From the NCBI RefSeq assembly GCF_030384885.1, contig NZ_CP128613.1: DNA of 64,000 nucleotides. One strand, given 5' to 3'. The notes under the pieces are model-generated. The model searched no databases. It was not told the DNA's origin and worked only from the letters and a program-made list of their open reading frames with translations. Each line of letters begins with the position of its first letter. The stretch's first letter is position 1. The stretch is from Escherichia coli (lineage in GTDB: Bacteria > Pseudomonadota > Gammaproteobacteria > Enterobacterales > Enterobacteriaceae). The position numbers and the translations under genes are program-made. This document shows, piece by piece, positions 5,041 through 59,650 of this stretch.

Positions 5041-5991
5041 TTATAGTTTGACGGCAAGAAGATCTTCCAGTTTGCGTTGATCAACGGCGAACAGGCGGAT
5101 GCCTTCAGAGAGTTTTTCTACCGCCATTGCATCCTGATTGTGCTCCCAACGGAACTCCGCTTCGCTCATCGGGGCTGGGCGTGGGAACGTCTGAGAAGGC
5201 GGGATTAATTTACGCACTACTGGAGAAACTTTTTCCTGCAGCTCCTTCAGCAAATTCGGCGCAATAGTCAGTCGATCACAGCCGGTTAAGGCGAGGATTT
5301 GTTCGGTGCGACGGAAGCTCGCGCCCATTACAATGGTTTCGTAGTGGTGTTGCTTATAGTAGTCGTAGATATTGCGCACTGACTTAACGCCCGGATCTTC
5401 TTCCACCACATACGGGTCCATCGGCTTACGCGCCTGATACCAGTCATAAATACGCCCGACAAACGGCGAAATCAGAAAAACGCCTGCTTCTGCACAGGCC
5501 CGCGCCTGAGCAAAAGAAAACAGTAGCGTCAGGTTGCAGTTAATACCTTCTTTTTCCAGTTCTTCTGCCGCGCGAATTCCTTCCCAGGTTGAAGCCAGCT
5601 TGATCAGAATACGTGATTTCTCAACGCCTTGTTGCTGATACAAGTCCACCAAATGGCGCGCCTTCTCAATACTTTTTTCTTTATCAAAAGAGAGGCGTGC
5701 ATCAACTTCTGTTGACACGCGACCGGGTACGATTTTGAGAATTTCAGTACCGAAATTGACCGCCAGTTTGTCACATGCAGCGACCACCTGTTGTTCCTGG
5801 GTCTTGCCATTTTTTTTACCCCAGGCGATAGCATCGTCTATTAAATGCTCATATTGTGATAATCCGGCAGCCTTGAGTAACAGCGAAGGATTGGTGGTGG
5901 CATCCTGGGGATGATAATGGCGAATGGACTCAATATCGCCGCTGTCTGCCACGACAGTGGTGAACTGTTTGATGCCGTCTAACTCGTTCAT
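5041..5991 (-). CDS. talA: Transaldolase A
   Basis: 316-aa ORF, transaldolase sequence; immediately upstream of tktB on same strand. Confidence 0.9.
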
Positions 5992-8850: not shown

Positions 8851-9186
8851 ATGGATAAAGAACGCATCATTCAGGAATTTGTGCCCGGCAAACAGGTCAC
8901 ACTGGCGCATCTCATCGCGCATCCCGGCGAGGAACTGGCGAAGAAAATCGGCGTTCCGGATGCGGGCGCAATTGGCATTATGACGCTAACTCCCGGCGAA
9001 ACGGCGATGATCGCCGGTGATTTAGCGCTGAAAGCCGCCGATGTGCATATCGGTTTTCTCGACCGTTTTAGCGGCGCACTGGTGATTTATGGTTCGGTGG
9101 GCGCAGTAGAAGAAGCGTTATCACAAACCGTCAGCGGTTTAGGTCGCTTATTAAATTATACGCTGTGTGAAATGACCAAAAGTTAA
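8851..9186 (+). CDS. eutS: Ethanolamine-utilisation microcompartment shell protein EutS
   Basis: Start placed at ATG 8851 ([10 protein letters not shown]), 111 aa; BMC-type shell protein; first gene of eut operon. Confidence 0.85.
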
Positions 9187-9198
9187 TACGAGGCATTC

Positions 9199-9678
9199 AT
9201 GAAACGAATTGCGTTTGTGGGTGCCGTCGGGGCAGGAAAAACAACGTTATTTAATGCATTACAGGGGAATTATACCCTCGCAAGAAAAACACAGGCCGTG
9301 GAATTTAATGATAAGGGTGATATTGATACGCCGGGTGAATATTTTAGCCATCCCCGCTGGTATCACGCCTTAATTACCACGCTACAGGATGTGGACATGC
9401 TGATTTATGTCCACGGCGCGAATGACCCGGAAAGCCGATTGCCTGCCGGGTTGCTGGATATTGGTGCCAGCAAACGGCAAATCGCCGTCATCAGTAAAAC
9501 GGACATGCCGGATGCTGACGTCGCAGCAACGCGAAAGTTATTGCTTGAAACTGGTTTTGAAGAGCCGATTTTCGAGCTAAACAGCCACGACCCGCAAAGC
9601 GTGCAGCAACTGGTGGATTATCTGGCATCTCTCACCGAACAGGAGGAAGCAGGTGAAAAAACTCATCACAGCGAATGA
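9199..9678 (+). CDS. eutP: Ethanolamine-utilisation protein EutP (P-loop NTPase)
   Basis: 159-aa ORF with Walker A GAVGAGKTT; operon position. Confidence 0.85.
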   Translation: MKRIAFVGAVGAGKTTLFNALQGNYTLARKTQAVEFNDKGDIDTPGEYFSHPRWYHALITTLQDVDMLIYVHGANDPESRLPAGLLDIGASKRQIAVISKTDMPDADVAATRKLLLETGFEEPIFELNSHDPQSVQQLVDYLASLTEQEEAGEKTHHSE

Positions 9679-10354
9679 TATTCGTGAAGCACATGCGCGC
9701 GGCGAACAGGCAATGTCCGTGGTTCTGCGCGCCAGCATTATTACCCCGGAAGCCCGTGAAGTGGCGGATCTGTTGGGTTTTACCATCACCGAATGTGATG
9801 AATCGACTGCGGTAACGACGTCCGTTCCCGCCAGCGTGCCAGCCGATAAAACCGAAAGCCAGCGCATCCGCGAAACCATCATCGCCCAGCTACCGGAAGG
9901 CCAGTTTACCGAAAGCCTGGTCGCGCAGCTGATGGAAAAAGTGATGAAGGAAAAACAGTCGCTGGAGCAGGGGGCAATGCAGCCGAGTTTTAAATCGGTG
10001 ACCGGCAAAGGCGGCATCAAAGTTATTGATGGCAGCAGCGTGAAGTTTGGTCGTTTCGATGGCGCGGAACCGCACTGCGTAGGCTTGACTGATCTCGTGA
10101 CCGGAGACGACGGCAGCAGCATGGCCGCCGGTTTTATGCAGTGGGAGAACGCCTTCTTCCCGTGGACCCTGAACTACGACGAAATCGACATGGTACTGGA
10201 AGGGGAGCTTCATGTTCGCCATGAAGGCGAAACCATGATCGCTAAAGCAGGCGACGTGATGTTTATCCCGAAAGGTTCCAGCATCGAATTTGGTACGACA
10301 TCCAGCGTGAAATTCCTGTATGTCGCCTGGCCGGCTAACTGGCAATCCCTATGA
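9653..10354 (+). CDS. eutQ: Ethanolamine-utilisation protein EutQ (cupin)
   Basis: 233-aa ORF overlapping eutP 3' end; operon position. Confidence 0.85.
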   Translation: MKKLITANDIREAHARGEQAMSVVLRASIITPEAREVADLLGFTITECDESTAVTTSVPASVPADKTESQRIRETIIAQLPEGQFTESLVAQLMEKVMKEKQSLEQGAMQPSFKSVTGKGGIKVIDGSSVKFGRFDGAEPHCVGLTDLVTGDDGSSMAAGFMQWENAFFPWTLNYDEIDMVLEGELHVRHEGETMIAKAGDVMFIPKGSSIEFGTTSSVKFLYVAWPANWQSL

Positions 10355-11154
10355 AAGATTTCATCACCGAAGCATGGCTAAGAGCGAACCATACGCTCAG
10401 CGAAGGCGCAGAGATCCATCTCCCTGCGGACAGTCGCCTGACGCCCTCTGCCCGGGAGTTACTGGAAAGCCGCCATCTGCGCATCAAGTTTATTGACGAG
10501 CAGGGCCGCCTGTTTGTTGACGATGAACAGCAGCAGCTACAGCCCGTTCACGTGCTGACCAGTAGTGATGAACATCCGCAGGCGTGCTGCGAACTGTGTC
10601 ACCAGCCAGTGGCGAAAAAGCCGGACACGCTGACTCACCTGTCGGCGGAAAAAATGGTCGCCAAAAGCGATCCGCGCCTGGGTTTTCGCGCTGTTCTCGA
10701 CAGCACCATTGCGCTGGTAGTGTGGCTGCAAATTGAACTGACAGAACCGTGGCAGCCGTGGCTGGCGGATATCCGTTCGCGTCTTGGCAACATTATGCGT
10801 GCCGATGTGTTGGGCGAACCGCTGGGCTGCCAGGCGATTGTCGGGTTTTCTGACGAAGATCTGCATCGACTTTCTCACCAGCCACTACGTTATCTCGACC
10901 ACGATCATCTGGTGCCGGAAGCCAGCCACGGACGTGATGCGGCGTTGCTGAATCTGCTACGCACCAAAGTGCGGGAAACCGAAACCGTCGCGGCGCAGGT
11001 GTTTATTACCCGTAGTTTTGAAGTATTACGCCCGGACATCTTGCAGGCGCTGAACCGCCTTTCCAGCACGGTTTACGTGATGATGATTTTGAGCGTAACG
11101 AAGCAGCCGCTAACGGTGAAGCAGATCCAACAACGACTGGGGGAAACGCAATGA
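10351..11154 (+). CDS. eutT: Ethanolamine-utilisation cobalamin adenosyltransferase EutT
   Basis: 267-aa ORF, 4-bp overlap with eutQ; operon position. Confidence 0.85.
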
Positions 11155-12167
11155 TTATTGAACGTTGTCGTGAACTGGCGTTGCGAGCGCCCGCCAGAGT
11201 GGTATTTCCGGATGCGTTAGATCAACGTGTGCTGAAAGCTGCGCAATATTTACATCAACAAGGTCTGGCAACGCCCATTCTGGTCGCCAATCCGTTTGAA
11301 CTTCGTCAGTTTGCGCTCAGTCACGGCGTGGCGATGGACGGGCTACTGGTGATTGATCCTCATAGCAACCTCGCAATGCGGGAAGAATTTGCTGACCGCT
11401 GGCAGGCCCGTGCGGGAGATAAAACGCCGTCGGATGCGCTGGAAAAACTTACCGATCCACTGATGTTCGCTGCCGCAATGGTCAGCGCTGGTAAAGCGGA
11501 TGTCTGTATCGCGGGCAACCTCTCTTCAACGGCAAATGTACTACGTGCCGGATTACGCGTTATCGGCTTGCAGCCTGGCTGTAAAACGCTCTCCTCCATT
11601 TTCCTGATGCTGCCACAGTACAGCGGTCCAGCGATGGGCTTTGCCGATTGCAGCGTAGTGCCACAGCCGACGGCGGCACAACTGGCGGATATCGCGCTTG
11701 CCAGCGCCGAAACCTGGCGAGCCATCACTGGAGAAGAGCCGCGCGTGGCGATGTTGTCGTTTTCCAGTAACGGCAGCGCCCGTCACCCCTGCGTTGCCAA
11801 CGTGCAGCAAGCGACAGAAATCGTCCGTGAGCGCGCGCCGCAGCTGGTCGTCGATGGCGAGTTGCAGTTTGACGCCGCCTTTGTGCCGGAAGTGGCGGCG
11901 CAAAAAGCGCCAGCCAGCCCGCTACAGGGCAAAGCCAATGTGATGGTTTTTCCGTCGCTGGAGGCGGGAAATATTGGCTACAAAATCGCACAACGACTTG
12001 GCGGATATCGTGCCGTCGGGCCATTGATACAAGGACTTGCCGCGCCGATGCACGATCTCTCTCGTGGTTGTAGCGTGCAGGAAATTATCGAGCTGGCGCT
12101 GGTGGCAGCTGTGCCGCGTCAGACAAAAGTGAACCGCGAAAGCAGTTTACAAACACTGGTTGAATGA
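11151..12167 (+). CDS. eutD: Phosphotransacetylase EutD
   Basis: 338-aa ORF, PTA-family sequence; operon position. Confidence 0.85.
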
Positions 12168-12205
12168 ACGGTCCCGTTCTGGACCCCTATAAAGAGGAAA
12201 ACACA

Positions 12206-12499
12206 ATGGAAGCATTAGGAATGATCGAAACCCGGGGCCTGGTTGCACTGATTGAGGCTTCTGATGCGATGGTGAAAGCTGCGCGCGTCAAACTGGTCGG
12301 CGTGAAGCAGATTGGCGGCGGCCTGTGTACTGCCATGGTTCGCGGTGATGTTGCAGCCTGTAAAGCCGCGACCGATGCCGGTGCCGCAGCGGCACAGCGT
12401 ATCGGTGAACTGGTATCCGTACATGTTATTCCGCGTCCGCACGGCGATCTGGAAGAGGTCTTCCCGATCGGCCTGAAAGGCGATAGCAGCAACCTGTAA
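12206..12499 (+). CDS. eutM: Microcompartment shell protein EutM (BMC hexamer)
   Basis: Start placed at [12 protein letters not shown] (ATG 12206), 97 aa; canonical BMC-domain sequence. Confidence 0.9.
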
Positions 12500-12604
12500 T
12501 CACCCTGTGTGACGTCGATCCGGGCGTCACGCTCTCTCCTTTTTCTTTTACCTTCCGCGGAGGGTAGGGGGAGTTTTTACCTGAAATACGCCACGGAGGC
12601 GGGT

Positions 12605-12892
12605 ATGAAACTGGCAGTCGTCACAGGACAAATTGTTTGTACCGTACGCCATCACGGACTGGCGCATGACAAATTGCTGATGGTGGAAATGATTGATCCA
12701 CAAGGTAATCCTGATGGGCAATGTGCTGTCGCCATCGACAATATTGGCGCGGGAACCGGGGAGTGGGTGTTGCTGGTGAGTGGCAGTTCCGCCCGCCAGG
12801 CGCATAAAAGCGAAACGTCACCGGTCGATCTGTGCGTGATTGGCATCGTCGATGAGGTGGTGTCTGGCGGTCAGGTAATTTTCCACAAATAA
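12605..12892 (+). CDS. eutN: Microcompartment vertex protein EutN
   Basis: Start placed at MKLAVVTGQIV (ATG 12605), 95 aa; EutN/CcmL family. Confidence 0.85.
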   Translation: MKLAVVTGQIVCTVRHHGLAHDKLLMVEMIDPQGNPDGQCAVAIDNIGAGTGEWVLLVSGSSARQAHKSETSPVDLCVIGIVDEVVSGGQVIFHK

Positions 12893-12903
12893 GGCAGAAC
12901 ATC

Positions 12904-14307
12904 ATGAATCAACAGGATATTGAACAGGTGGTGAAAGCGGTACTGCTGAAAATGCAAAGCAGTGACACGTCGCCCGCCGCCGTTCATGAGATGGGCGTTT
13001 TTGCTTCCCTGGATGACGCCGTTGCGGCGGCCAAAATTGCCCAGCAAGGGTTAAAAAGCGTGGCAATGCGCCAGTTAGCCATTGCTGCTATTCGTGAAGC
13101 AGGCGAAAAACACGCCAGAGATTTAGCAGAACTTGCCGTCAGTGAAACGGGTATGGGCCGCGTAGAAGATAAATTTGCCAAAAACGTCGCTCAGGCACGC
13201 GGTACGCCAGGCGTTGAGTGCCTCTCTCCACAGGTGCTGACCGGTGACAACGGCCTGACTTTAATTGAAAACGCGCCCTGGGGCGTGGTGGCTTCGGTGA
13301 CGCCTTCCACTAACCCGGCGGCAACCGTAATTAATAACGCCATCAGCCTGATTGCCGCGGGCAACAGCGTCATTTTTGCCCCGCATCCGGCGGCGAAAAA
13401 AGTCTCCCAGCGGGCGATTACGCTGCTCAACCAGGCGATTGTTGCCGCAGGCGGGCCGGAAAACTTACTGGTTACCGTGGCAAACCCGGATATCGAAACC
13501 GCGCAACGCTTGTTCAAGTTTCCGGGCATCGGCCTGCTGGTGGTGACCGGCGGCGAAGCGGTAGTAGAAGCGGCGCGTAAACACACCAATAAACGTCTGA
13601 TTGCCGCAGGTGCCGGTAATCCGCCTGTGGTGGTGGATGAAACCGCCGACCTCGCCCGTGCCGCTCAGTCCATCGTCAAAGGCGCTTCTTTCGATAACAA
13701 CATCATTTGTGCCGATGAAAAGGTGCTGATTGTTGTTGATAGCGTAGCCGATGAACTAATGCGTCTGATGGAAGGCCAGCATGCGGTGAAACTGACCGCA
13801 GAACAGGCACAGCAGTTACAACCGGTGTTGCTGAAAAATATCGATGAGCGCGGAAAAGGCACCGTCAGCCGTGACTGGGTGGGTCGCGATGCGGCGAAAA
13901 TCGCGGCGGCAATCGGCCTGAACGTGCCGCAAGAAACGCGCTTGCTGTTTGTAGAAACCCCCGCAGAACATCCGTTTGCCGTGACCGAACTGATGATGCC
14001 AGTGCTGCCGGTCGTGCGCGTCGCCAACGTGGCGGATGCCATTGCGCTGGCGGTGAAACTGGAAGGCGGTTGCCACCACACGGCAGCAATGCACTCGCGC
14101 AATATCGAGAACATGAACCAAATGGCGAACGCCATTGATACCAGTATTTTCGTTAAGAACGGACCGTGCATTGCCGGGCTGGGGCTGGGCGGGGAAGGCT
14201 GGACCACGATGACCATCACCACGCCAACCGGTGAAGGGGTAACCAGCGCGCGTACGTTTGTCCGTCTGCGTCGCTGTGTATTAGTCGATGCGTTTCGCAT
14301 TGTTTAA
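12904..14307 (+). CDS. eutE: Acetaldehyde dehydrogenase (acetylating) EutE
   Basis: 467-aa ORF, aldehyde dehydrogenase family; operon position. Confidence 0.9.
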   Translation: MNQQDIEQVVKAVLLKMQSSDTSPAAVHEMGVFASLDDAVAAAKIAQQGLKSVAMRQLAIAAIREAGEKHARDLAELAVSETGMGRVEDKFAKNVAQARGTPGVECLSPQVLTGDNGLTLIENAPWGVVASVTPSTNPAATVINNAISLIAAGNSVIFAPHPAAKKVSQRAITLLNQAIVAAGGPENLLVTVANPDIETAQRLFKFPGIGLLVVTGGEAVVEAARKHTNKRLIAAGAGNPPVVVDETADLARAAQSIVKGASFDNNIICADEKVLIVVDSVADELMRLMEGQHAVKLTAEQAQQLQPVLLKNIDERGKGTVSRDWVGRDAAKIAAAIGLNVPQETRLLFVETPAEHPFAVTELMMPVLPVVRVANVADAIALAVKLEGGCHHTAAMHSRNIENMNQMANAIDTSIFVKNGPCIAGLGLGGEGWTTMTITTPTGEGVTSARTFVRLRRCVLVDAFRIV

Positions 14308-14317
14308 GGAGCAACCG

Positions 14318-15154
14318 ATGGCGCACGACGAACAATGGCTTACCCCGCGTCTGCAAACGGCGGCAACGCTGTGTAACCAGACGCCCGCCACCACGGAGTC
14401 TCCGTTGTGGTTAGGGGTGGATCTGGGCACCTGCGATGTGGTGTCGATGGTTGTCGACTGCGACGGTCAGCCGGTGGCGGTATGTCTCGACTGGGCCGAT
14501 GTGGTCCGCGACGGCATCGTCTGGGATTTCTTCGGTGCTGTCACCATTGTTCGTCGCCATCTCGACACCCTCGAGCAGCAATTCGGTCGCCGTTTTAGCC
14601 ATGCGGCGACCTCATTTCCACCAGGTACGGATCCGCGTATTTCCATCAACGTGCTGGAGTCTGCCGGGCTGGAAGTGAGCCATGTGCTGGATGAGCCAAC
14701 CGCAGTCGCGGATCTGCTGCAACTGGACAACGCCGGTGTAGTGGATATTGGCGGCGGCACTACCGGAATTGCCATCGTGAAAAAGGGCAAGGTGACTTAT
14801 TCAGCGGATGAAGCGACCGGCGGACATCACATTTCTCTGACTCTCGCCGGAAATCGCCGTATTTCGCTGGAAGAGGCAGAGCAGTACAAGCGCGGTCACG
14901 GTGACGAGATTTGGCCTGCGGTGAAGCCGGTGTACGAAAAAATGGCGGACATTGTTGCCCGGCATATTGAAGGGCAGGGCATTACTGATTTATGGCTGGC
15001 GGGCGGCTCCTGTATGCAACCGGGCGTGGCGGAACTGTTTTGCAAACAATTCCCGGCGTTACAGGTGCATCTACCGCAGCACAGTTTGTTTATGACCCCG
15101 CTGGCGATCGCCAGTAGCGGGCGAGAGAAAGCGGAGGGACTATATGCAAAATGA
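14318..15154 (+). CDS. eutJ: Ethanolamine-utilisation chaperonin-like protein EutJ
   Basis: Start placed at MAHDEQ (ATG 14318); actin/Hsp70-like ATPase; operon position. Confidence 0.85.
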   Translation: MAHDEQWLTPRLQTAATLCNQTPATTESPLWLGVDLGTCDVVSMVVDCDGQPVAVCLDWADVVRDGIVWDFFGAVTIVRRHLDTLEQQFGRRFSHAATSFPPGTDPRISINVLESAGLEVSHVLDEPTAVADLLQLDNAGVVDIGGGTTGIAIVKKGKVTYSADEATGGHHISLTLAGNRRISLEEAEQYKRGHGDEIWPAVKPVYEKMADIVARHIEGQGITDLWLAGGSCMQPGVAELFCKQFPALQVHLPQHSLFMTPLAIASSGREKAEGLYAK

Positions 15155-16331
15155 ATTGCAGACCGCGCTCTTTCAGGCGTTCGATACCCTGAATCTGCAA
15201 CGGGTAAAAACATTTAGCGTTCCACCGGTGACGCTTTGCGGTCCGGGCGCGGTGAGCAGTTGCGGACAGCAAGCACAAACGCGTGGGCTGAAACATCTGT
15301 TCGTGATGGCAGACAGCTTTTTGCATCAGGCGGGGATGACCGCTGGGCTGACGCGTAGCCTGGCCGTTAAAGGCATCGCCATGACGCTCTGGCCATGTCC
15401 GGTGGGCGAACCGTGCATCACCGACGTGTGTGCCGCCGTGGCGCAGTTGCGTGAATCAGGCTGTGACGGAGTGATCGCGTTTGGCGGTGGCTCGGTGCTG
15501 GATGCGGCAAAAGCCGTTGCGTTGCTGGTGACGAACCCCGACCGCACGCTGGCAGAAATGTCAGAAACCAGCGTTCTGCAACCGCGTCTGCCGCTGATTG
15601 CCATTCCAACTACCGCCGGAACCGGCTCTGAAACCACCAACGTAACGGTGATTATCGACGCGGTGAGCGGGCGCAAGCAGGTGTTAGCCCATGCCTCGCT
15701 GATGCCGGATGTGGCGATTCTCGACGCCGCGCTGACCGAAGGCGTGCCGTCGCATGTCACGGCGATGACCGGTATCGACGCGTTAACCCATGCCATTGAA
15801 GCGTACAGTGCGCTGAACGCTACACCGTTTACAGACAGCCTGGCGATTGGCGCAATTGCGATGATTGGTAAATCACTGCCGAAAGCAGTGGGTTACGGTC
15901 ATGACCTTGCCGCGCGCGAGAGTATGTTGCTGGCTTCATGCATGGCGGGAATGGCATTTTCCAGTGCCGGACTTGGGTTATGTCACGCGATGGCGCATCA
16001 GCCGGGGGCGGCGCTGCATATTCCGCACGGACTGGCGAACGCCATGCTGCTGCCCACGGTGATGGAGTTTAACCGGATGGTCTGTCGCGAACGGTTTAGT
16101 CAGATTGGTCGGGCGCTGCGAACTAAAAAATCAGACGATCGTGACGCTATTAACGCGGTAAGTGAGCTGATTGCGGAAGTCGGGATTGGTAAACGGCTGG
16201 GCGATGTTGGCGCGACATCTGCGCATTACGGTGCATGGGCGCAGGCCGCGCTGGAAGATATTTGTCTGCGTAGCAACCCGCGTACTGCCAGCCTGGAGCA
16301 GATCGTCGGCCTGTACGCGGCGGCGCAATAA
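15144..16331 (+). CDS. eutG: Iron-containing alcohol dehydrogenase EutG
   Basis: 395-aa ORF; Fe-ADH family; operon position. Confidence 0.9.
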   Translation: MQNELQTALFQAFDTLNLQRVKTFSVPPVTLCGPGAVSSCGQQAQTRGLKHLFVMADSFLHQAGMTAGLTRSLAVKGIAMTLWPCPVGEPCITDVCAAVAQLRESGCDGVIAFGGGSVLDAAKAVALLVTNPDRTLAEMSETSVLQPRLPLIAIPTTAGTGSETTNVTVIIDAVSGRKQVLAHASLMPDVAILDAALTEGVPSHVTAMTGIDALTHAIEAYSALNATPFTDSLAIGAIAMIGKSLPKAVGYGHDLAARESMLLASCMAGMAFSSAGLGLCHAMAHQPGAALHIPHGLANAMLLPTVMEFNRMVCRERFSQIGRALRTKKSDDRDAINAVSELIAEVGIGKRLGDVGATSAHYGAWAQAALEDICLRSNPRTASLEQIVGLYAAAQ

Positions 16332-16333
16332 AT

Positions 16334-16517
<184 letters not shown>

Positions 16518-16547
16518 ATAAATAACAACTAACAGGGAGTAAAGGCG

Positions 16548-17774
16548 ATGGGAATTAACGAAATCATCATGTACATCATGATGTTCTTTATGCTGATAGC
16601 TGCCGTAGACAGGATCCTGTCGCAGTTCGGCGGTTCTGCTCGTTTCCTCGGTAAGTTCGGTAAAAGTATCGAAGGATCAGGCGGTCAGTTCGAAGAAGGC
16701 TTTATGGCAATGGGCGCTCTGGGTCTGGCGATGGTCGGTATGACCGCGCTGGCACCGGTACTGGCCCACGTACTTGGGCCGGTGATTATCCCGGTTTACG
16801 AAATGCTCGGCGCAAACCCGTCAATGTTCGCCGGAACGCTGCTGGCGTGCGATATGGGCGGCTTCTTCCTCGCCAAAGAGCTGGCGGGCGGCGACGTAGC
16901 AGCGTGGCTATACTCTGGGTTAATTCTCGGGTCGATGATGGGGCCAACGATTGTGTTTTCCATTCCGGTGGCGCTCGGCATTATCGAACCTTCTGACCGT
17001 CGTTATCTGGCGCTCGGCGTGCTGGCGGGCATTGTTACCATTCCGATTGGCTGTATTGCTGGTAGTCTGGTGGCTATGTACTCCGGTGTGCAGATCAACG
17101 GTCAGCCGGTGGAATTCACCTTTGCCCTGATCCTGATGAACATGATCCCGGTACTTATCGTCGCGGTACTGGTGGCGCTGGGGCTGAAATTCATCCCGGA
17201 AAAAATGATCAACGGCTTCCAGATCTTCGCCAAGTTCCTCGTTGCATTGATCACCCTCGGTCTTGCCGCTGCGGTAGTGAAATTCCTCCTTGGCTGGGAA
17301 CTGATCCCCGGTCTGGATCCGATCTTTATGGCCCCTGGCGATAAACCCGGTGAAGTGATGCGCGCCATTGAAGTTATCGGTTCTATCTCCTGCGTTCTGT
17401 TAGGGGCGTATCCGATGGTGCTGCTGCTGACCCGCTAGTTTGAAAAACCGCTGATGAGCGTCGGTAAGGTGCTGAATATGAACAATATCGCGGCAGCTGG
17501 CATGGTGGCAACGCTTGCTAACAACATCCCGATGTTCGGCATGATGAAGCAGATGGATACCCGCGGCAAAGTGATCAACTGTGCCTTCGCCGTTTCCGCT
17601 GCTTTCGCCCTGGGTGACCACTTAGGCTTCGCCGCTGCCAACATGAACGCCATGATCTTCCCGATGATTGTCGGCAAGTTGATCGGCGGCGTAACGGCGA
17701 TTGGCGTGGCGATGATGCTGGTGCCAAAAGAAGACGCGACCGCGGCTAAAACCGAAGCGGAGGCACAATCGTGA
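16548..17774 (+). pseudogene. eutH: Ethanolamine permease EutH interrupted by an in-frame amber codon (TAG at 17436-17438)
   Basis: Track ORFs 16548-17438 and 17454-17774 are in the same frame; 296 + 1 + 5 + 106 codons = 408, the EutH length; the sequence reads ...MVLLLTR*FEKPLMSVGK... Confidence 0.8.
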
Positions 17775-19174
17775 ACACTCGCCAGCTACTGAGCGTCGGT
17801 ATCGATATCGGCACTACCACCACCCAGGTGATCTTCTCCCACCTGGAGCTGGTTAACCGTGCGGCGGTGTCGCAGGTGCCGCGCTACGAATTCATCAAAC
17901 GCGAAATTAGCTGGCAAAGCCCGGTGTTCTTTACCCCTGTCGATAAACAGGGCGGTTTAAAAGAAGCGGAACTGAAATCCTTAATCCTCGAGCAATATCA
18001 GGCTGCGGGCATTGCGCCGGAAAGCGTTGATTCTGGTGCCATCATCATCACCGGTGAAAGCGCGAAAACCCGTAATGCTCGCCCAGCGGTGATGACGCTT
18101 TCTCAGTCGCTGGGCGATTTTGTCGTCGCCAGCGCCGGGCCGCATCTCGAATCCGTGATCGCCGGTCACGGTGCCGGGGCGCAAACCCTTTCTGAACAAC
18201 GGTTATGTCGGGTACTGAATATCGATATCGGCGGTGGCACCGCGAACTACGCTTTGTTCGATGCCGGAAAAATCAGCGGCACTGCCTGCCTTAACGTCGG
18301 CGGTCGCCTGCTGGAAACCGACAGCCAGGGGCGCGTGGTTTACGCTCATAAACCGGGGCAGATGATAGTGGATGAGTGCTTCGGTGCAGGCACTGACGCC
18401 CGTTCGCTGACCGGCGCGCAGCTGGTGCAGGTTACCCGCCGGATGGCAGAGCTGATTGTCGAAGTGATTGACGGAACGCTCTCGCCGCTCGCGCAGGCAT
18501 TAATGCAAACCGGTTTGCTGCCCGCAGGTGTTACTCCCGAAATCATTACGCTTTCTGGCGGCGTGGGCGAATGTTATCGCCACCAGCCCGCCGACCCGTT
18601 CTGTTTTGCCGATATCGGCCCGCTTCTGGCAACGGCGCTGCATGACCATCCGCGCCTGCGTGAGATGAACGTGCAGTTTCCGGCGCAAACCGTACGCGCC
18701 ACGGTGATTGGCGCGGGTGCACATACCCTTTCGCTCTCTGGCAGCACAATCTGGCTGGAGGGCGTACAACTGCCGCTGCGCAATTTGCCGGTGGCGATCC
18801 CAATTGATGAAACGGATCTGGTGAGTGCCTGGCAACAGGCGCTGATTCAGCTGGATCTTTGCCCCAAAACTGACGCGTACGTGCTGGCGCTTCCCGCCTC
18901 GCTGCCTGTGCGTTACGCCGCGGTACTGACGGTCATCAACGCGCTGGTCGATTTCGTCACGCGTTTTCCGAATCCGCATCCCCTGCTGGTGGTGGCCGGG
19001 CAGGACTTTGGTAAAGCTCTGGGCATGTTGTTGCGCCCACAGCTACAACAACTCCCGTTGGCAGTCATTGACGAAGTGATTGTCCGCGCGGGGGACTATA
19101 TCGACATTGGTACGCCTCTTTTTGGCGGATCGGTTGTGCCGGTGACGGTGAAATCACTCGCATTTCCTTCCTGA
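17771..19174 (+). CDS. eutA: Ethanolamine ammonia-lyase reactivase EutA
   Basis: 467-aa ORF; 4-bp overlap with eutH stop; operon position. Confidence 0.9.
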   Translation: MNTRQLLSVGIDIGTTTTQVIFSHLELVNRAAVSQVPRYEFIKREISWQSPVFFTPVDKQGGLKEAELKSLILEQYQAAGIAPESVDSGAIIITGESAKTRNARPAVMTLSQSLGDFVVASAGPHLESVIAGHGAGAQTLSEQRLCRVLNIDIGGGTANYALFDAGKISGTACLNVGGRLLETDSQGRVVYAHKPGQMIVDECFGAGTDARSLTGAQLVQVTRRMAELIVEVIDGTLSPLAQALMQTGLLPAGVTPEIITLSGGVGECYRHQPADPFCFADIGPLLATALHDHPRLREMNVQFPAQTVRATVIGAGAHTLSLSGSTIWLEGVQLPLRNLPVAIPIDETDLVSAWQQALIQLDLCPKTDAYVLALPASLPVRYAAVLTVINALVDFVTRFPNPHPLLVVAGQDFGKALGMLLRPQLQQLPLAVIDEVIVRAGDYIDIGTPLFGGSVVPVTVKSLAFPS

Positions 19175-19185
19175 GGGAACGACTT

Positions 19186-20547
19186 ATGAAACTAAAGACC
19201 ACATTGTTCGGCAATGTATATCAGTTTAAGGATGTAAAAGAGGTGCTGGCTAAAGCCAACGAACTGCGTTCGGGGGATGTGCTGGCGGGCGTTGCAGCGG
19301 CAAGCTCACAGGAGCGCGTGGCGGCAAAGCAGGTGTTGTCGGAAATGACCGTAGCGGACATCCGCAATAATCCGGTGATTGCCTATGAAGATGACTGCGT
19401 GACGCGGCTGATTCAGGACGACGTTAACGAAACGGCCTACAACCAGATTAAAAACTGGAGCATCAGCGAGCTGCGTGAGTATGTGCTGAGTGATGAAACC
19501 AGCGTTGACGACATTGCTTTTACCCGCAAAGGGCTGACCTCGGAAGTGGTCGCGGCGGTAGCGAAGATTTGCTCTAACGCGGATCTGATCTACGGCGCGA
19601 AGAAAATGCCGATTATCAAAAAGGCCAATACTACCATCGGTATTCCGGGCACCTTTAGCGCCCGTTTGCAGCCAAACGATACCCGCGACGACGTGCAAAG
19701 TATCGCCGCGCAAATCTACGAAGGGCTTTCTTTCGGGGTGGGCGATGCGGTGATCGGCGTTAACCCGGTGACTGACGACGTGGAAAACTTAAGCCGCGTG
19801 CTGGATACCATCTATGGCGTGATCGACAAATTCAACATTCCGACCCAGGGCTGCGTGCTGGCGCACGTTACTACCCAGATTGAAGCGATCCGTCGCGGCG
19901 CGCCGGGCGGGCTGATTTTCCAGAGCATCTGCGGCAGCGAAAAAGGGCTGAAAGAATTTGGCGTGGAGCTGGCGATGCTCGATGAAGCACGCGCAGTGGG
20001 CGCAGAGTTTAACCGTATCGCCGGGGAAAACTGCCTCTACTTCGAAACCGGGCAGGGTTCTGCGCTATCGGCGGGCGCTAACTTCGGTGCAGATCAGGTA
20101 ACGATGGAAGCGCGTAACTACGGGCTGGCACGTCATTACGATCCGTTTATCGTCAACACCGTAGTGGGCTTTATTGGGTCAGAGTATCTCTACAACGACC
20201 GGCAGATTATCCGTGCGGGCTTAGAAGATCACTTTATGGGCAAACTGAGCGGCATTTCTATGGGCTGTGACTGCTGCTACACCAACCACGCTGACGCTGA
20301 CCAGAACCTCAACGAAAACCTGATGATCTTGCTCGCCACCGCAGGCTGTAACTACATCATGGGGATGCCGCTGGGTGATGACATCATGCTCAACTACCAG
20401 ACTACGGCCTTCCACGACACCGCCACTGTGCGTCAGTTACTCAACCTGCGCCCGTCACCGGAGTTTGAACGCTGGCTGGAAAGCATGGGCATTATGGCAA
20501 ACGGTCGCCTGACCAAACGGGCGGGCGATCCGTCACTGTTCTTCTGA
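19186..20547 (+). CDS. eutB: Ethanolamine ammonia-lyase large subunit EutB
   Basis: 453-aa ORF immediately after eutA, with no intervening prophage. Confidence 0.9.
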   Translation: MKLKTTLFGNVYQFKDVKEVLAKANELRSGDVLAGVAAASSQERVAAKQVLSEMTVADIRNNPVIAYEDDCVTRLIQDDVNETAYNQIKNWSISELREYVLSDETSVDDIAFTRKGLTSEVVAAVAKICSNADLIYGAKKMPIIKKANTTIGIPGTFSARLQPNDTRDDVQSIAAQIYEGLSFGVGDAVIGVNPVTDDVENLSRVLDTIYGVIDKFNIPTQGCVLAHVTTQIEAIRRGAPGGLIFQSICGSEKGLKEFGVELAMLDEARAVGAEFNRIAGENCLYFETGQGSALSAGANFGADQVTMEARNYGLARHYDPFIVNTVVGFIGSEYLYNDRQIIRAGLEDHFMGKLSGISMGCDCCYTNHADADQNLNENLMILLATAGCNYIMGMPLGDDIMLNYQTTAFHDTATVRQLLNLRPSPEFERWLESMGIMANGRLTKRAGDPSLFF

Positions 20548-20567
20548 TGACGCGGAGATAACACATC

Positions 20568-21455
20568 ATGGATCAAAAACAGATTGAAGAAATTGTACGC
20601 AGCGTGATGGCGTCAATGGGACAAGCGGCCCCCGCGCCGTCAGAAGCAAAATGCGCCACTACCACCTGTGCAGCACCGGTGACCTCGGAAAGCTGCGCGC
20701 TGGATTTAGGTTCCGCAGAAGCAAAAGCGTGGATTGGCGTTGAAAACCCGCATCGCGCAGACGTATTAACAGAACTGCGCCGCAGCACCGTGGCCCGCGT
20801 CTGTACCGGTCGTGCCGGTCCGCGTCCGCGTACCCAGGCGTTGCTGCGTTTCCTGGCCGATCACTCTCGTTCGAAAGATACCGTACTGAAAGAAGTGCCG
20901 GAAGAGTGGGTGAAAGCGCAGGGCTTGCTGGAAGTCCGCTCTGAAATTAGCGACAAAAATCTCTATCTGACTCGCCCGGATATGGGCCGCCGCTTGTGTG
21001 CAGAGGCTGTTGAAGCGCTGAAAGCGCAGTGTGTTGCCAATCCGGACGTACAGGTGGTTATTTCCGATGGTCTGTCTACTGATGCGATCACCGTGAACTA
21101 TGAAGAGATTCTGCCACCGCTGATGGCGGGCCTGAAACAGGCCGGGTTGAAAGTCGGCACACCGTTCTTTGTGCGTTACGGTCGCGTGAAGATTGAAGAT
21201 CAGATTGGCGAACTTCTTGGCGCGAAAGTGGTGATCCTGCTGGTGGGTGAACGTCCGGGGTTGGGGCAGTCAGAAAGTCTCTCCTGCTACGCCGTTTACT
21301 CGCCGCGTATGGCAACCACCGTTGAGGCCGACCGTACCTGTATCTCTAACATTCACCAGGGCGGCACGCCGCCGGTTGAAGCCGCAGCCGTCATTGTGGA
21401 TTTGGCGAAACGTATGCTGGAGCAGAAAGCATCCGGCATCAACATGACCCGATAA
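20568..21455 (+). CDS. eutC: Ethanolamine ammonia-lyase small subunit EutC
   Basis: 295-aa ORF; operon position. Confidence 0.9.
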
Positions 21456-21464
21456 GGAGGCATC

Positions 21465-22124
21465 ATGCCAGCTTTAGATTTGATTCGACCGTCGGTAACC
21501 GCCATGCGGGTGATTGCCTCTGTTAACGCCGAATTTGCGCGTGAACTGAAATTGCCGCCGCATATTCGTAGCCTCGGGCTGATTTCTGCTGATTCCGATG
21601 ACGTCACCTACATTGCGGCTGACGAAGCGACCAAGCAGGCGATGGTTGAAGTCGTGTATGGTCGCTCGCTGTATGCGGGAGCTGCACACGGGCCGTCACC
21701 GACTGCCGGTGAAGTGCTGATTATGCTCGGGGGGCCAAACCCGGCGGAAGTGCGTGCCGGTCTGGATGCGATGGTTGCGCATATTGAAAATGGCGCTGCT
21801 TTCCAGTGGGCTAATGATGCAGAAAACACAGCCTTCCTGGCGCATGTCGTTTCGCGTACCGGCTCTTATCTCTCATCAACCGCCGGGATCACGCTTGGCG
21901 ATCCGATGGCGTATCTGGTGGCACCGCCGCTGGAAGCGACCTACGGCATTGATGCAGCCCTGAAATCTGCCGACGTGCAGCTGGTGACCTATGTCCCGCC
22001 ACCGTCTGAAACCAACTACTCGGCAGCATTTTTAACCGGTAGCCAGGCCGCGTGTAAAGCAGCCTGTAACGCCTTTACCGATGCAGTGCTGGAAATCGCG
22101 CGTAATCCAATCCAGCGTGCGTAA
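21465..22124 (+). CDS. eutL: Microcompartment shell protein EutL (tandem BMC)
   Basis: 219-aa ORF; operon position. Confidence 0.9.
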
Positions 22125-22136
22125 CGGAGGTTGCCG

Positions 22137-22637
22137 ATGATCAATGCACTGGGATTGCTGGAAGTGGACGGCATGGTCGCCGCGATAGATGCAGCTGATG
22201 CCATGCTCAAAGCAGCTAACGTTCGTCTGCTCAGTCACGAAGTGCTTGACCCTGGTCGCCTAACGCTAGTGGTGGAAGGCGATCTGGCGGCGTGTCGTGC
22301 GGCGCTGGACGCAGGTTGTGCTGCCGCGATGCGTACCGGGCGTGTCATCAGCCGTAAGGAGATCGGTCGGCCAGACGATGACACCCAGTGGCTGGTTACT
22401 GGCTTTAACCGCCAGCCGAAGCAACCCGTAAAGGAACCCGACGCGCCAGTTATCGTCGGGGAATCTGCTGACGAGTTGTTGGCGCTGTTAACATCAGTAC
22501 GTCAGGGAATGACGGCAGGAGAAGTGGCTGCCCACTTTGGCTGGCCGCTGGAAAAAGCCAGAAATGCGCTCGAACAGCTCTTTTCTGCCGGGACGTTACG
22601 TAAACGCAGTAGTCGTTATCGTCTCAAGCCCCATTAA
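22137..22637 (+). CDS. eutK: Microcompartment shell protein EutK
   Basis: Start placed at MINALGLLEVDG; N-terminal BMC domain and C-terminal basic tail. Confidence 0.85.
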   Translation: MINALGLLEVDGMVAAIDAADAMLKAANVRLLSHEVLDPGRLTLVVEGDLAACRAALDAGCAAAMRTGRVISRKEIGRPDDDTQWLVTGFNRQPKQPVKEPDAPVIVGESADELLALLTSVRQGMTAGEVAAHFGWPLEKARNALEQLFSAGTLRKRSSRYRLKPH

Positions 22638-22682
22638 CCTGTCGGAGGTGCCGGGTGTCCTACAACACCCGGCATTAACATC

Positions 22683-23735
22683 ATGAAAAAGACCCGTACA
22701 GCCAATTTGCACCATCTTTATCATGAACCCTTACCCGAAAACCTGAAGCTCACGCCGAAGGTCGAAGTGGATAATGTTCATCAACGACAGACAACGGATG
22801 TCTATGAACATGCTTTGACGATTACCGCCTGGCAGCAGATTTACGATCAGCTGCATCCGGGCAAATTTCATGGTGAATTTACGGAAATTCTGCTCGATGA
22901 TATTCAGGTTTTCCGTGAATACACGGGGCTGGCGCTGCGTCAGTCGTGCCTGGTCTGGCCGAACTCGTTCTGGTTTGGCATTCCGGCGACGCGCGGTGAG
23001 CAGGGATTTATCGGTTCGCAATGTCTGGGAAGCGCAGAAATTGCGACACGCCCTGGAGGAACCGAGTTTGAATTAAGTACGCCGGACGATTACACGATCC
23101 TTGGCGTGGTGCTTTCTGAAGATGTCATCACCCGTCAGGCTAACTTTTTGCATAACCCGGAAAGGGTGCTGCATATGTTACGTAACCAGTCGGCGCTGGA
23201 AGTGAAAGAGCAGCATAAAGCCGCGCTGTGGGGCTTTGTCCAACAGGCTCTGGCGACATTTTGCGAGAACCCGGAAAATCTCCATCAGCCTGCAGTGCGA
23301 AAAGTGCTGGGGGATAATTTGCTAATGGCGATGGGGGCGATGCTGGAAGAAGCGCAGCCAATGATGACGGCGGAAAGTATAAGTCATCAGAGTTACCGCC
23401 GATTGCTTTCCCGGGCCCGTGAATATGTGCTGGAAAACATGTCCGAACCAGTGACGGTACTGGACTTGTGTAATCAACTGCACGTCAGCCGCCGCACCTT
23501 GCAAAACGCATTTCACGCTATTTTGGGCATTGGCCCAAACGCGTGGCTGAAACGCATTCGCCTGAACGCCGTGCGCCGTGAACTGATTAGCCCGTGGTCG
23601 CAAAGTATGACGGTAAAAGACGCCGCCATGCAGTGGGGATTCTGGCATCTTGGGCAGTTTGCCACGGATTATCAGCAATTGTTTGCAGAAAAGCCTTCAC
23701 TGACGCTGCATCAGCGGATGCAGGAACTGGAGTGA
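22683..23735 (+). CDS. eutR: AraC-family transcriptional activator of the eut operon
   Basis: 350-aa ORF; C-terminal AraC-type helix-turn-helix; last gene of eut operon. Confidence 0.9.
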
Positions 23736-23842
23736 AAACGACTGGTATCGCTTTTCGCCATATTTGTGTAACGAGAAAAGCCATGCAAATACTATAATTC
23801 GTATTTCTCTCAAAGAGAGTGAAGATAATCAGGAGGTCCAGG

Positions 23843-59056: not shown

Positions 59057-59113
59057 TGCAGATAGCAAAAAAGCGCCTTTAGGGCGCTTTTTTACATTGG
59101 TGGGTCGTGCAGG
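59057..59113 (-). repeat. 57-bp direct-repeat copy: terminator hairpin plus the 3'-terminal 16 nt of tRNA-Lys (partner copy at 59213-59269)
   Basis: Identical 57-mer gcagatagcaaaaaagcgcctttagggcgcttttttacattggtgggtcgtgcagga at both positions. Confidence 0.85.
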
Positions 59114-59253
59114 ATGACTCGCTTCGCTCGCCCTTCGGGCCGTCGCCGCGAGCGGCTCCGTTGTTTCGCTGCGCTCAACTCGAACCTGCTGCAGGTTCGA
59201 ATCTTTGAGTATCGCAGATAGCAAAAAAGCGCCTTTAGGGCGCTTTTTTACAT

Positions 59254-59329
59254 TGGTGGGTCGTGCAGGATTCGAACCTGCGACCAATTGATTAAAAGTC
59301 AACTGCTCTACCAACTGAGCTAACGACCC
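59254..59329 (-). tRNA. lysV: tRNA-Lys (anticodon UUU)
   Basis: Reverse complement matches GGGTCGTTAGCTCAGTTGGTAGAGCAGTTGACTTTTAATCAATTGGTCGCAGGTTCGAATCCTGCACGACCCACCA. Confidence 0.95.
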
Positions 59330-59333
59330 GAAG

Positions 59334-59409
59334 TGGTGGGTGATGACGGGATCGAACCGCCGACCCCCTCCTTGTAAGGGAGGTGCTCTCCCAGCTGAGC
59401 TAATCACCC
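59334..59409 (-). tRNA. valY: tRNA-Val (anticodon UAC)
   Basis: Reverse complement matches GGGTGATTAGCTCAGCTGGGAGAGCACCTCCCTTACAAGGAGGGGGTCGGCGGTTCGATCCCGTCATCACCCACCA; gene name by position. Confidence 0.95.
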
Positions 59410-59455
59410 ACTTCGGTACTTCACATTTTTACAAGAAATCTAGCTGGCGAGAAAG

Positions 59456-59531
59456 TGGTGGGTGATGACGGGATCGAACCGCCGACCCCCTCCTTGTAAG
59501 GGAGGTGCTCTCCCAGCTGAGCTAATCACCC
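59456..59531 (-). tRNA. valX: tRNA-Val (anticodon UAC)
   Basis: Identical 76-nt tRNA-Val sequence; gene name by position. Confidence 0.95.
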
Positions 59532-59574
59532 ACTTCTCAATTTCTTGCTACACGGCGGAGACTACATAAGTAGT

Positions 59575-59650
59575 TGGTGGGTGATGACGGGATCGAACCG
59601 CCGACCCCCTCCTTGTAAGGGAGGTGCTCTCCCAGCTGAGCTAATCACCC
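59575..59650 (-). tRNA. valU: tRNA-Val (anticodon UAC)
   Basis: Identical 76-nt tRNA-Val sequence; gene name by position. Confidence 0.95.

Follow-up and report, generated by a model that had tools for sequence, protein, structure and literature searches.

Is the in-frame amber codon that interrupts eutH, the ethanolamine permease gene, in an Escherichia coli genome a genuine allele, and if so, what remains of the channel and of the strain's ability to use ethanolamine? These questions were addressed for a stretch of 64,000 nucleotides from contig NZ_CP128613.1 (assembly GCF_030384885.1); this whole stretch is hereafter referred to as the window, and all coordinates are those of the window.

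An amber codon interrupts eutH in an otherwise open eut operon

The eutH gene is flanked by eutG on one side and eutA on the other, and its 1,227 bases match 5,411 of 5,426 complete E. coli genomes. Translation of positions 16548-17774 in one frame yields 408 codons with codon 297 as the sole internal stop, such that an uninterrupted frame for a complete EutH domain is not present. The first-pass annotation had described open reading frames of 296 and 106 amino acids in a single frame with TAG and five codons between them, and this description is borne out (296 + 1 + 5 + 106 = 408). The features referred to throughout are as follows, all on the plus strand.

8851-23735, eut operon (eutS, P, Q, T, D, M, N, E, J, G, H, A, B, C, L, K, R), delimited from the annotation of strain 2013C-4282 and a frame check of the coding sequences
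16548-17774, eutH, 408 codons, a pseudogene interrupted at codon 297
16548-17438, truncated EutH product, the N-terminal 296 residues followed by TAG
17064, G173S, the second derived G>A change in eutH (codon 173, GGT>AGT)
17436-17438, amber codon TAG (codon 297), with a derived G>A change at 17437; ancestral TGG (Trp)
17454-17774, longer remnant open reading frame, 106 amino acids (the ATG at 17454 is Met303)
17478-17774, remnant open reading frame, 98 amino acids, in frame, starting at Met311
17771-17774, GTGA overlap of the eutA start and the eutH stop, a translational-coupling junction

In its place in the operon (eutG-eutA) and in its 408-codon frame, the gene resembles those for EutH (PF04346) of E. 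coli and Salmonella enterica. At the DNA level it is 97.6-99.8% identical to E. coli eutH, and the protein obtained when codon 297 is repaired fits the full Pfam model. It differs from annotated reference proteins, which are uninterrupted over 408 amino acids, by the TAG at codon 297 and by G173S. The ancestral codon had been predicted to be TGG, and TGG (Trp) is indeed what is read at codon 297 in strain 2013C-4282, in 2017-02-2CC, and in a K-12-type genome; the latter two also have GGT at codon 173. The eutH TAG is a real allele that differs from TGG by a single base.

All genes of the eut operon other than eutH have full-length frames, in keeping with the earlier statement that the remaining eut genes are intact. 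Likewise, every other coding sequence annotated in 2013C-4282 across the window is open and of equal length, leaving eutH alone broken, and no insertion elements or further broken genes were found in the 64-kb window. The spacer between eutG and eutH contains a tandem duplication (16330-16517) of a 100-nucleotide REP-type palindromic unit, present as two 88-nucleotide copies that are 92% identical, and measures 216 nucleotides in the window versus 116 nucleotides in the K-12-type genome.

Lineage of the source strain and polarity of its substitutions

The closest genome, that of E. coli 2013C-4282 (NZ_CP027579.1), aligns colinearly with the whole window and differs from it by 11 substitutions and no indels. 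Identity between the window and other E. coli genomes is about 98%. Strain 2013C-4282 is a stx1a-positive human stool isolate of cryptic clade I with serotype OG9:H45 (PMC10100065). By sequence, the source strain is placed in the cryptic clade I lineage as close kin of this stx1a-positive isolate. The eutH of 2013C-4282 is intact (WP_000512386.1) and 99.8% identical to that of the window at the DNA level, with only two base differences, at 17437 (W297*) and 17064 (G173S). With 2017-02-2CC as the outgroup, the state in the window is the derived one at both positions.

The 11 substitutions relative to NZ_CP027579.1 are located at positions 5395, 13130, 17064, 17437, 20179, 22917, 25995, 27140, 40075, 42896, and 60777. 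Six are transversions and ten are nonsynonymous, a striking pattern that is consistent with weak purifying selection in a clone of very recent origin. The lineage of the window accounts for eight of the derived states and that of 2013C-4282 for three (talA, eutE, and eutR). The eut operon as a whole carries 3 of the 8 derived substitutions in 23% of the window, which is not a significant excess (P about 0.28 by our own binomial estimate).

Among these is a derived C>T change at 20179, in eutB codon 332, that is private to the source genome and results in EutB P332S. Proline 332 lies within VNTVVGFIGPEYLY, a motif shared without change by the EutB structures of E. coli (3ABO) and Listeria (2QEZ). 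EutB P332S may represent a second hit on ethanolamine catabolism, or it may be a base error in the source assembly.

Two other regions of the window are of note in their own right. Following eutR, positions 23736-26197 hold an insert that is absent from most E. coli (their alignments break off at 23735 and start again at 26198) and that is common to the window, 2013C-4282, and 2017-02-2CC; it encodes two TPR/SEL1 proteins, a T6SS immunity protein of the Tli3 family, and one hypothetical protein. A DUF1963 gene (26197-27450) adjoins the insert where the alignments of other E. coli resume. In addition, the RtT sRNA annotated in the colinear 2013C-4282 record corresponds to window positions of about 59098-59223 on the minus strand, adjoining a tRNA-Lys/Val/Val/Val cluster at 59254-59650.

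The amber allele recurs in independent assemblies of one small clone

A 35-mer spanning the TAG matches 5,217 complete E. coli genomes, and the matches listed are 97.1% identical to it, with a single G/A mismatch. None of those listed is a full-length 100% match to the TAG-bearing 35-mer. One record in the band of at least 99% identity, outside the matches listed, is taken to be a partial match, since a full-length perfect match would rank first. The exact 296-amino-acid product, with S173, is found on about 10 contigs, which come from at least 3 NCBI or SRA accessions, as follows.

GCA_036346665.1, on a 253-kb contig
SRR18593988, and 6 similar places
SRR34489103, and 1 further place

Inside eutH, the DNA of these sister assemblies (NCBI and Logan) agrees with the window at every base, and TAG and G173S always occur together in the assemblies recovered. 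Because independently assembled genomes carry an identical eutH, the TAG is an allele rather than an artifact of one assembly. The first-pass annotation had kept open the alternative of a sequencing error. The source genome does carry 3 or 4 private substitutions in the 64-kb window, of which the 3 that can be checked are each on one contig only, and some base errors in the source assembly are therefore conceivable. However, given that TAG and G173S recur together in GCA_036346665.1, SRR18593988, and SRR34489103, and that about 10 assemblies made independently contain the allele, an error of sequencing or assembly over a genomic TGG is dismissed as extremely improbable.

The source genome is distinct from its sister assemblies, as it has T at 20179 where two of them (L008 and L009) have C. 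Contig counts for the derived alleles range from 17 for gltX A290V, through about 7-10 for the eutH allele and 3 for the R48M change in a hypothetical protein, to one contig each for eutB P332S (WJS56863.1), cysW V77L (WJS56886.1), and DUF1963 Y104C (WJS56872.1). The last three share a single contig of 4,736,822 bp, presumably the source chromosome. These nested counts fit a stepwise accumulation of substitutions within one clone. A full-length EutH combining S173 with W297 is absent from a collection of 15 billion proteins.

Two further sets of fragments were considered and rejected. First, 296-amino-acid fragments with Gly at 173 were considered as evolutionary intermediates. Of ten occurrences listed, however, eight are cut by contig ends, and the other two are a TGA allele on another backbone and a junction contig; the fragments cut by contig ends reflect a selection effect of looking up an exact length. 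Second, occurrences elsewhere of the 106-amino-acid C-terminal open reading frame were considered as recurrent decay. Nearly all of these loci belong to assemblies, probably noisy long-read ones, that contain several frameshifts and in which eutA and eutB are often affected as well, and the mutation concerned differs from the TAG of the window.

The junction contig (L026; ENA ERZ27230261 k141_124501) is metagenomic and follows eutH to codon 296, after which it continues into unrelated sequence, TGACTTCACCGGCCTCATGAAG, at about locus position 1060. This switch may reflect a chimeric assembly of the contig or the junction of an insertion at eutH codon 296.

The truncated protein is predicted to be non-functional

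An exhaustive search of representative sequences recovered 1,353 EutH relatives, while a word-indexed homologue search gave close relatives only. The repaired protein (W297) matches Pfam PF04346 with E = 8.6e-131 across the whole model (positions 1-351 of 351; residues 3-391), and it was aligned with 74 full-length relatives of 31-56% identity. The first-pass annotation had asked whether reference EutH proteins might simply end at this position. None of the 75 aligned homologues ends at codon 297, the Pfam domain reaches residue 391, and past the column of residue 297 every one of the aligned sequences runs on for 98-132 residues. Conservation in the lost segment is no lower than in the remainder of the protein (mean majority fraction of 0.48 versus 0.42), and this segment holds the invariant K377 and the near-invariant M336 and G340. 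Trp297 itself is variable across the aligned homologues. Residue 173 is Gly in 71 of the 75 aligned sequences, Ala in 3, Thr in 1, and Ser in none.

An AlphaFold model of the repaired protein, built from the homologue alignment, has a pLDDT of 93.4 and a pTM of 0.92. In this model the stop falls at the end of the helix formed by residues 273-297, and the helices 299-308, 313-324, 326-331, 338-351, 357-365, and 367-391 are lost, along with a short C-terminal helix at 397-407. Judged from the alignment and the model, truncated EutH with G173S is most likely non-functional as a channel. A profile search for a solved structure related to EutH by sequence found none, and a Foldseek comparison of the model against the PDB gave no significant match (best E = 0.096, TM-score of at most 0.22); the EutH fold thus seems unrepresented among solved structures.

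Could the two halves of the protein still be made and act together as a split EutH? Such a scheme would have ribosomes re-initiate at Met311 (17478), so that pieces of 296 and 98 amino acids form a working channel. A Shine-Dalgarno-like AAGGUG (17466-17471), 6 nucleotides upstream of the ATG at 17478, pairs with the 3' end of 16S rRNA at a duplex energy of -7.5 kcal/mol, close to the -7.7 of the native eutH site, whereas the ATG at 17454 has essentially none (-0.9). The 98-amino-acid frame is called by gene callers in the sister assemblies and might be translated from this site. In addition, the stop falls between helices 273-297 and 299-308 in the model, and no mutation has accumulated downstream of it. 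However, the same Shine-Dalgarno-like site and ATG are present in intact eutH and are therefore not an adaptation to the stop, and the undamaged downstream region is equally well explained by the youth of the lesion. Further, the two pieces would lack residues 297-310, including the conserved K300-P301-L302, and the co-occurring G173S suggests that constraint on the protein has gone. A working split channel is accordingly considered quite unlikely, and a non-functional truncated protein is preferred.

Full-length EutH might also be produced despite the stop, through an amber-suppressor tRNA or efficient readthrough of UAG. No support for suppression was found, and it comes into consideration solely because the stop happens to be UAG. 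Natural isolates seldom carry amber suppressors, since UAG is the terminator of several hundred E. coli genes. Six tRNAs are encoded in the window (one Lys-UUU, three Val-UAC, and two Ala-GGC); all are ordinary, with no CUA anticodon among them. Moreover, any read-through EutH would keep serine at the near-invariant glycine 173. While some low-level natural readthrough of the eutH UAG is conceivable, suppression or readthrough efficient enough to supply the channel has a very low probability, and truncation after residue 296 remains the preferred reading.

Consequences of the stop for the genes downstream

Ribosomes that stop at the TAG end their translation 333 nucleotides upstream of the junction at which the eutH stop overlaps the eutA start. 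The start of eutA has a strong Shine-Dalgarno sequence of its own (GGAGG at 17759-17763; duplex energy of -9.5 kcal/mol). The region after the TAG is not markedly C-rich (C/G ratio of 0.88), with one 78-nucleotide stretch containing 30 C versus 17 G. Speculatively, lost translational coupling or Rho-dependent polarity may leave eutA, B, C, L, K, and R less strongly expressed.

Neutral loss or selected loss

The preferred explanation, to which we assign a probability of about 0.85, is that the window carries a young, clone-specific loss-of-function allele of eutH, a gene for a channel that is needed conditionally. In this explanation, a single G>A transition would have converted the TGG of Trp297 to an amber codon in a recent ancestor of the source strain, and translation would end after residue 296 to give a product that is missing the final quarter of its EutH domain and has the G173S change as well. 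The lesion is young, since the 111 codons beyond the stop are undamaged and only a small clone carries the allele. The allele resembles the young, single-hit pseudogenes of recently emerged pathogenic clones of E. coli and Shigella in that one nonsense mutation is present with no secondary decay, in its restriction to a small clone, and in the excess of nonsynonymous changes nearby (10 of 11). It is unlike those clones in that the 64-kb window has no sign of wider decay. The gene is a known one and the lesion an ordinary young pseudogene; it is no new kind of element.

Loss of eutH could instead have been favored by positive selection, for example because it restricts the flux of ethanolamine or acetaldehyde or restricts EutR signaling, rather than having resulted from neutral decay. 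Two of the eight substitutions in the lineage of the window fall within the 1.2-kb eutH (P about 0.01 by our own post hoc binomial estimate). An independent TGG>TGA change at codon 297 is found in an unrelated E. coli lineage with intact eutA and eutB, and an allele of EutH with an in-frame deletion of 13 amino acids is common in E. coli. The opal allele was found on a Logan contig of ERR12666636 (locus L021; 21,455 bp, with eutH at locus positions 61-1287) and is seen in 3 samples. It is like the allele of the window in being a G>A change at codon 297 that truncates the protein to the same 296 residues beside intact eutA and eutB, and unlike it in having TGA rather than TAG, Gly at 173, and differences at 37 of 1,227 bases; it arose separately, as its eutH backbone differs at those 37 bases.

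Nevertheless, TGG becomes a stop by either of two G>A transitions, and with so very many E. coli genomes sequenced, mutation alone would be expected to hit a Trp codon in this way more than once. The nonsynonymous excess would reflect weak purifying selection everywhere in a young clone rather than at eutH in particular, the amber allele is rare, with no match listed among the 5,217 complete genomes, and eutH mutants of enterohemorrhagic E. coli (EHEC) are reportedly outcompeted in bovine intestinal content (PMC5821096). Selected loss is thus regarded as unlikely. Similarly doubtful is the more general proposition that EutH has not simply been lost, in which either fragments 1-296 and 311-408 form a working or altered channel, or recurrent, selected inactivation at Trp297 tunes uptake and EutR signaling in gut E. 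coli. A young loss-of-function allele without selection for the loss is therefore retained as the preferred explanation.

The deletion allele deserves a brief description. Many EutH entries from E. coli and Shigella (P0040 and others) are 395 amino acids long and lack 13 residues in frame, IIEPSDRRYLALG. These correspond to EutH residues 145-157 (window positions of about 16980-17018) and are flanked by a repeated ALG. The 395-amino-acid EutH appears to be a common natural allele.

Expected phenotype and implications

According to a review, ethanolamine diffuses into cells when the pH is neutral, and cells make use of EutH or Eat when it is acidic (PMC5821096; see also PMC7677406). Since the genes for catabolism and for the shell are open, the source strain would still be able to use ethanolamine that diffuses into the cell unprotonated at neutral or alkaline pH, while its use at acidic pH or at low ethanolamine concentrations would be impaired, as extrapolated from published EutH phenotypes. 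Thus, a conditional impairment is expected rather than a complete loss of ethanolamine use, and there may be some cost in the gut. The first-pass annotation had suggested that loss of the permease might be tolerated. This agrees with diffusion at neutral pH (PMC5821096, PMC7677406), yet it does not extend to all conditions: in bovine intestinal content, an EHEC eutH mutant is reported to lose out to the wild type (PMC5821096), and loss of eutH is therefore not necessarily free of cost.

For annotation, eutH should be flagged as a pseudogene in this clone. The co-occurrence of W297* with EutB P332S hints at relaxed selection on ethanolamine catabolism in the clone, albeit with weak statistics. 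The allele predicts poor use of ethanolamine at acidic pH or at low ethanolamine concentrations in a Shiga-toxin-related lineage of cryptic clade I. Ethanolamine use and EutR signaling matter for colonization of the gut by EHEC (PMC5821096), and given this role, a naturally eutH-null clone could serve as a comparison strain.
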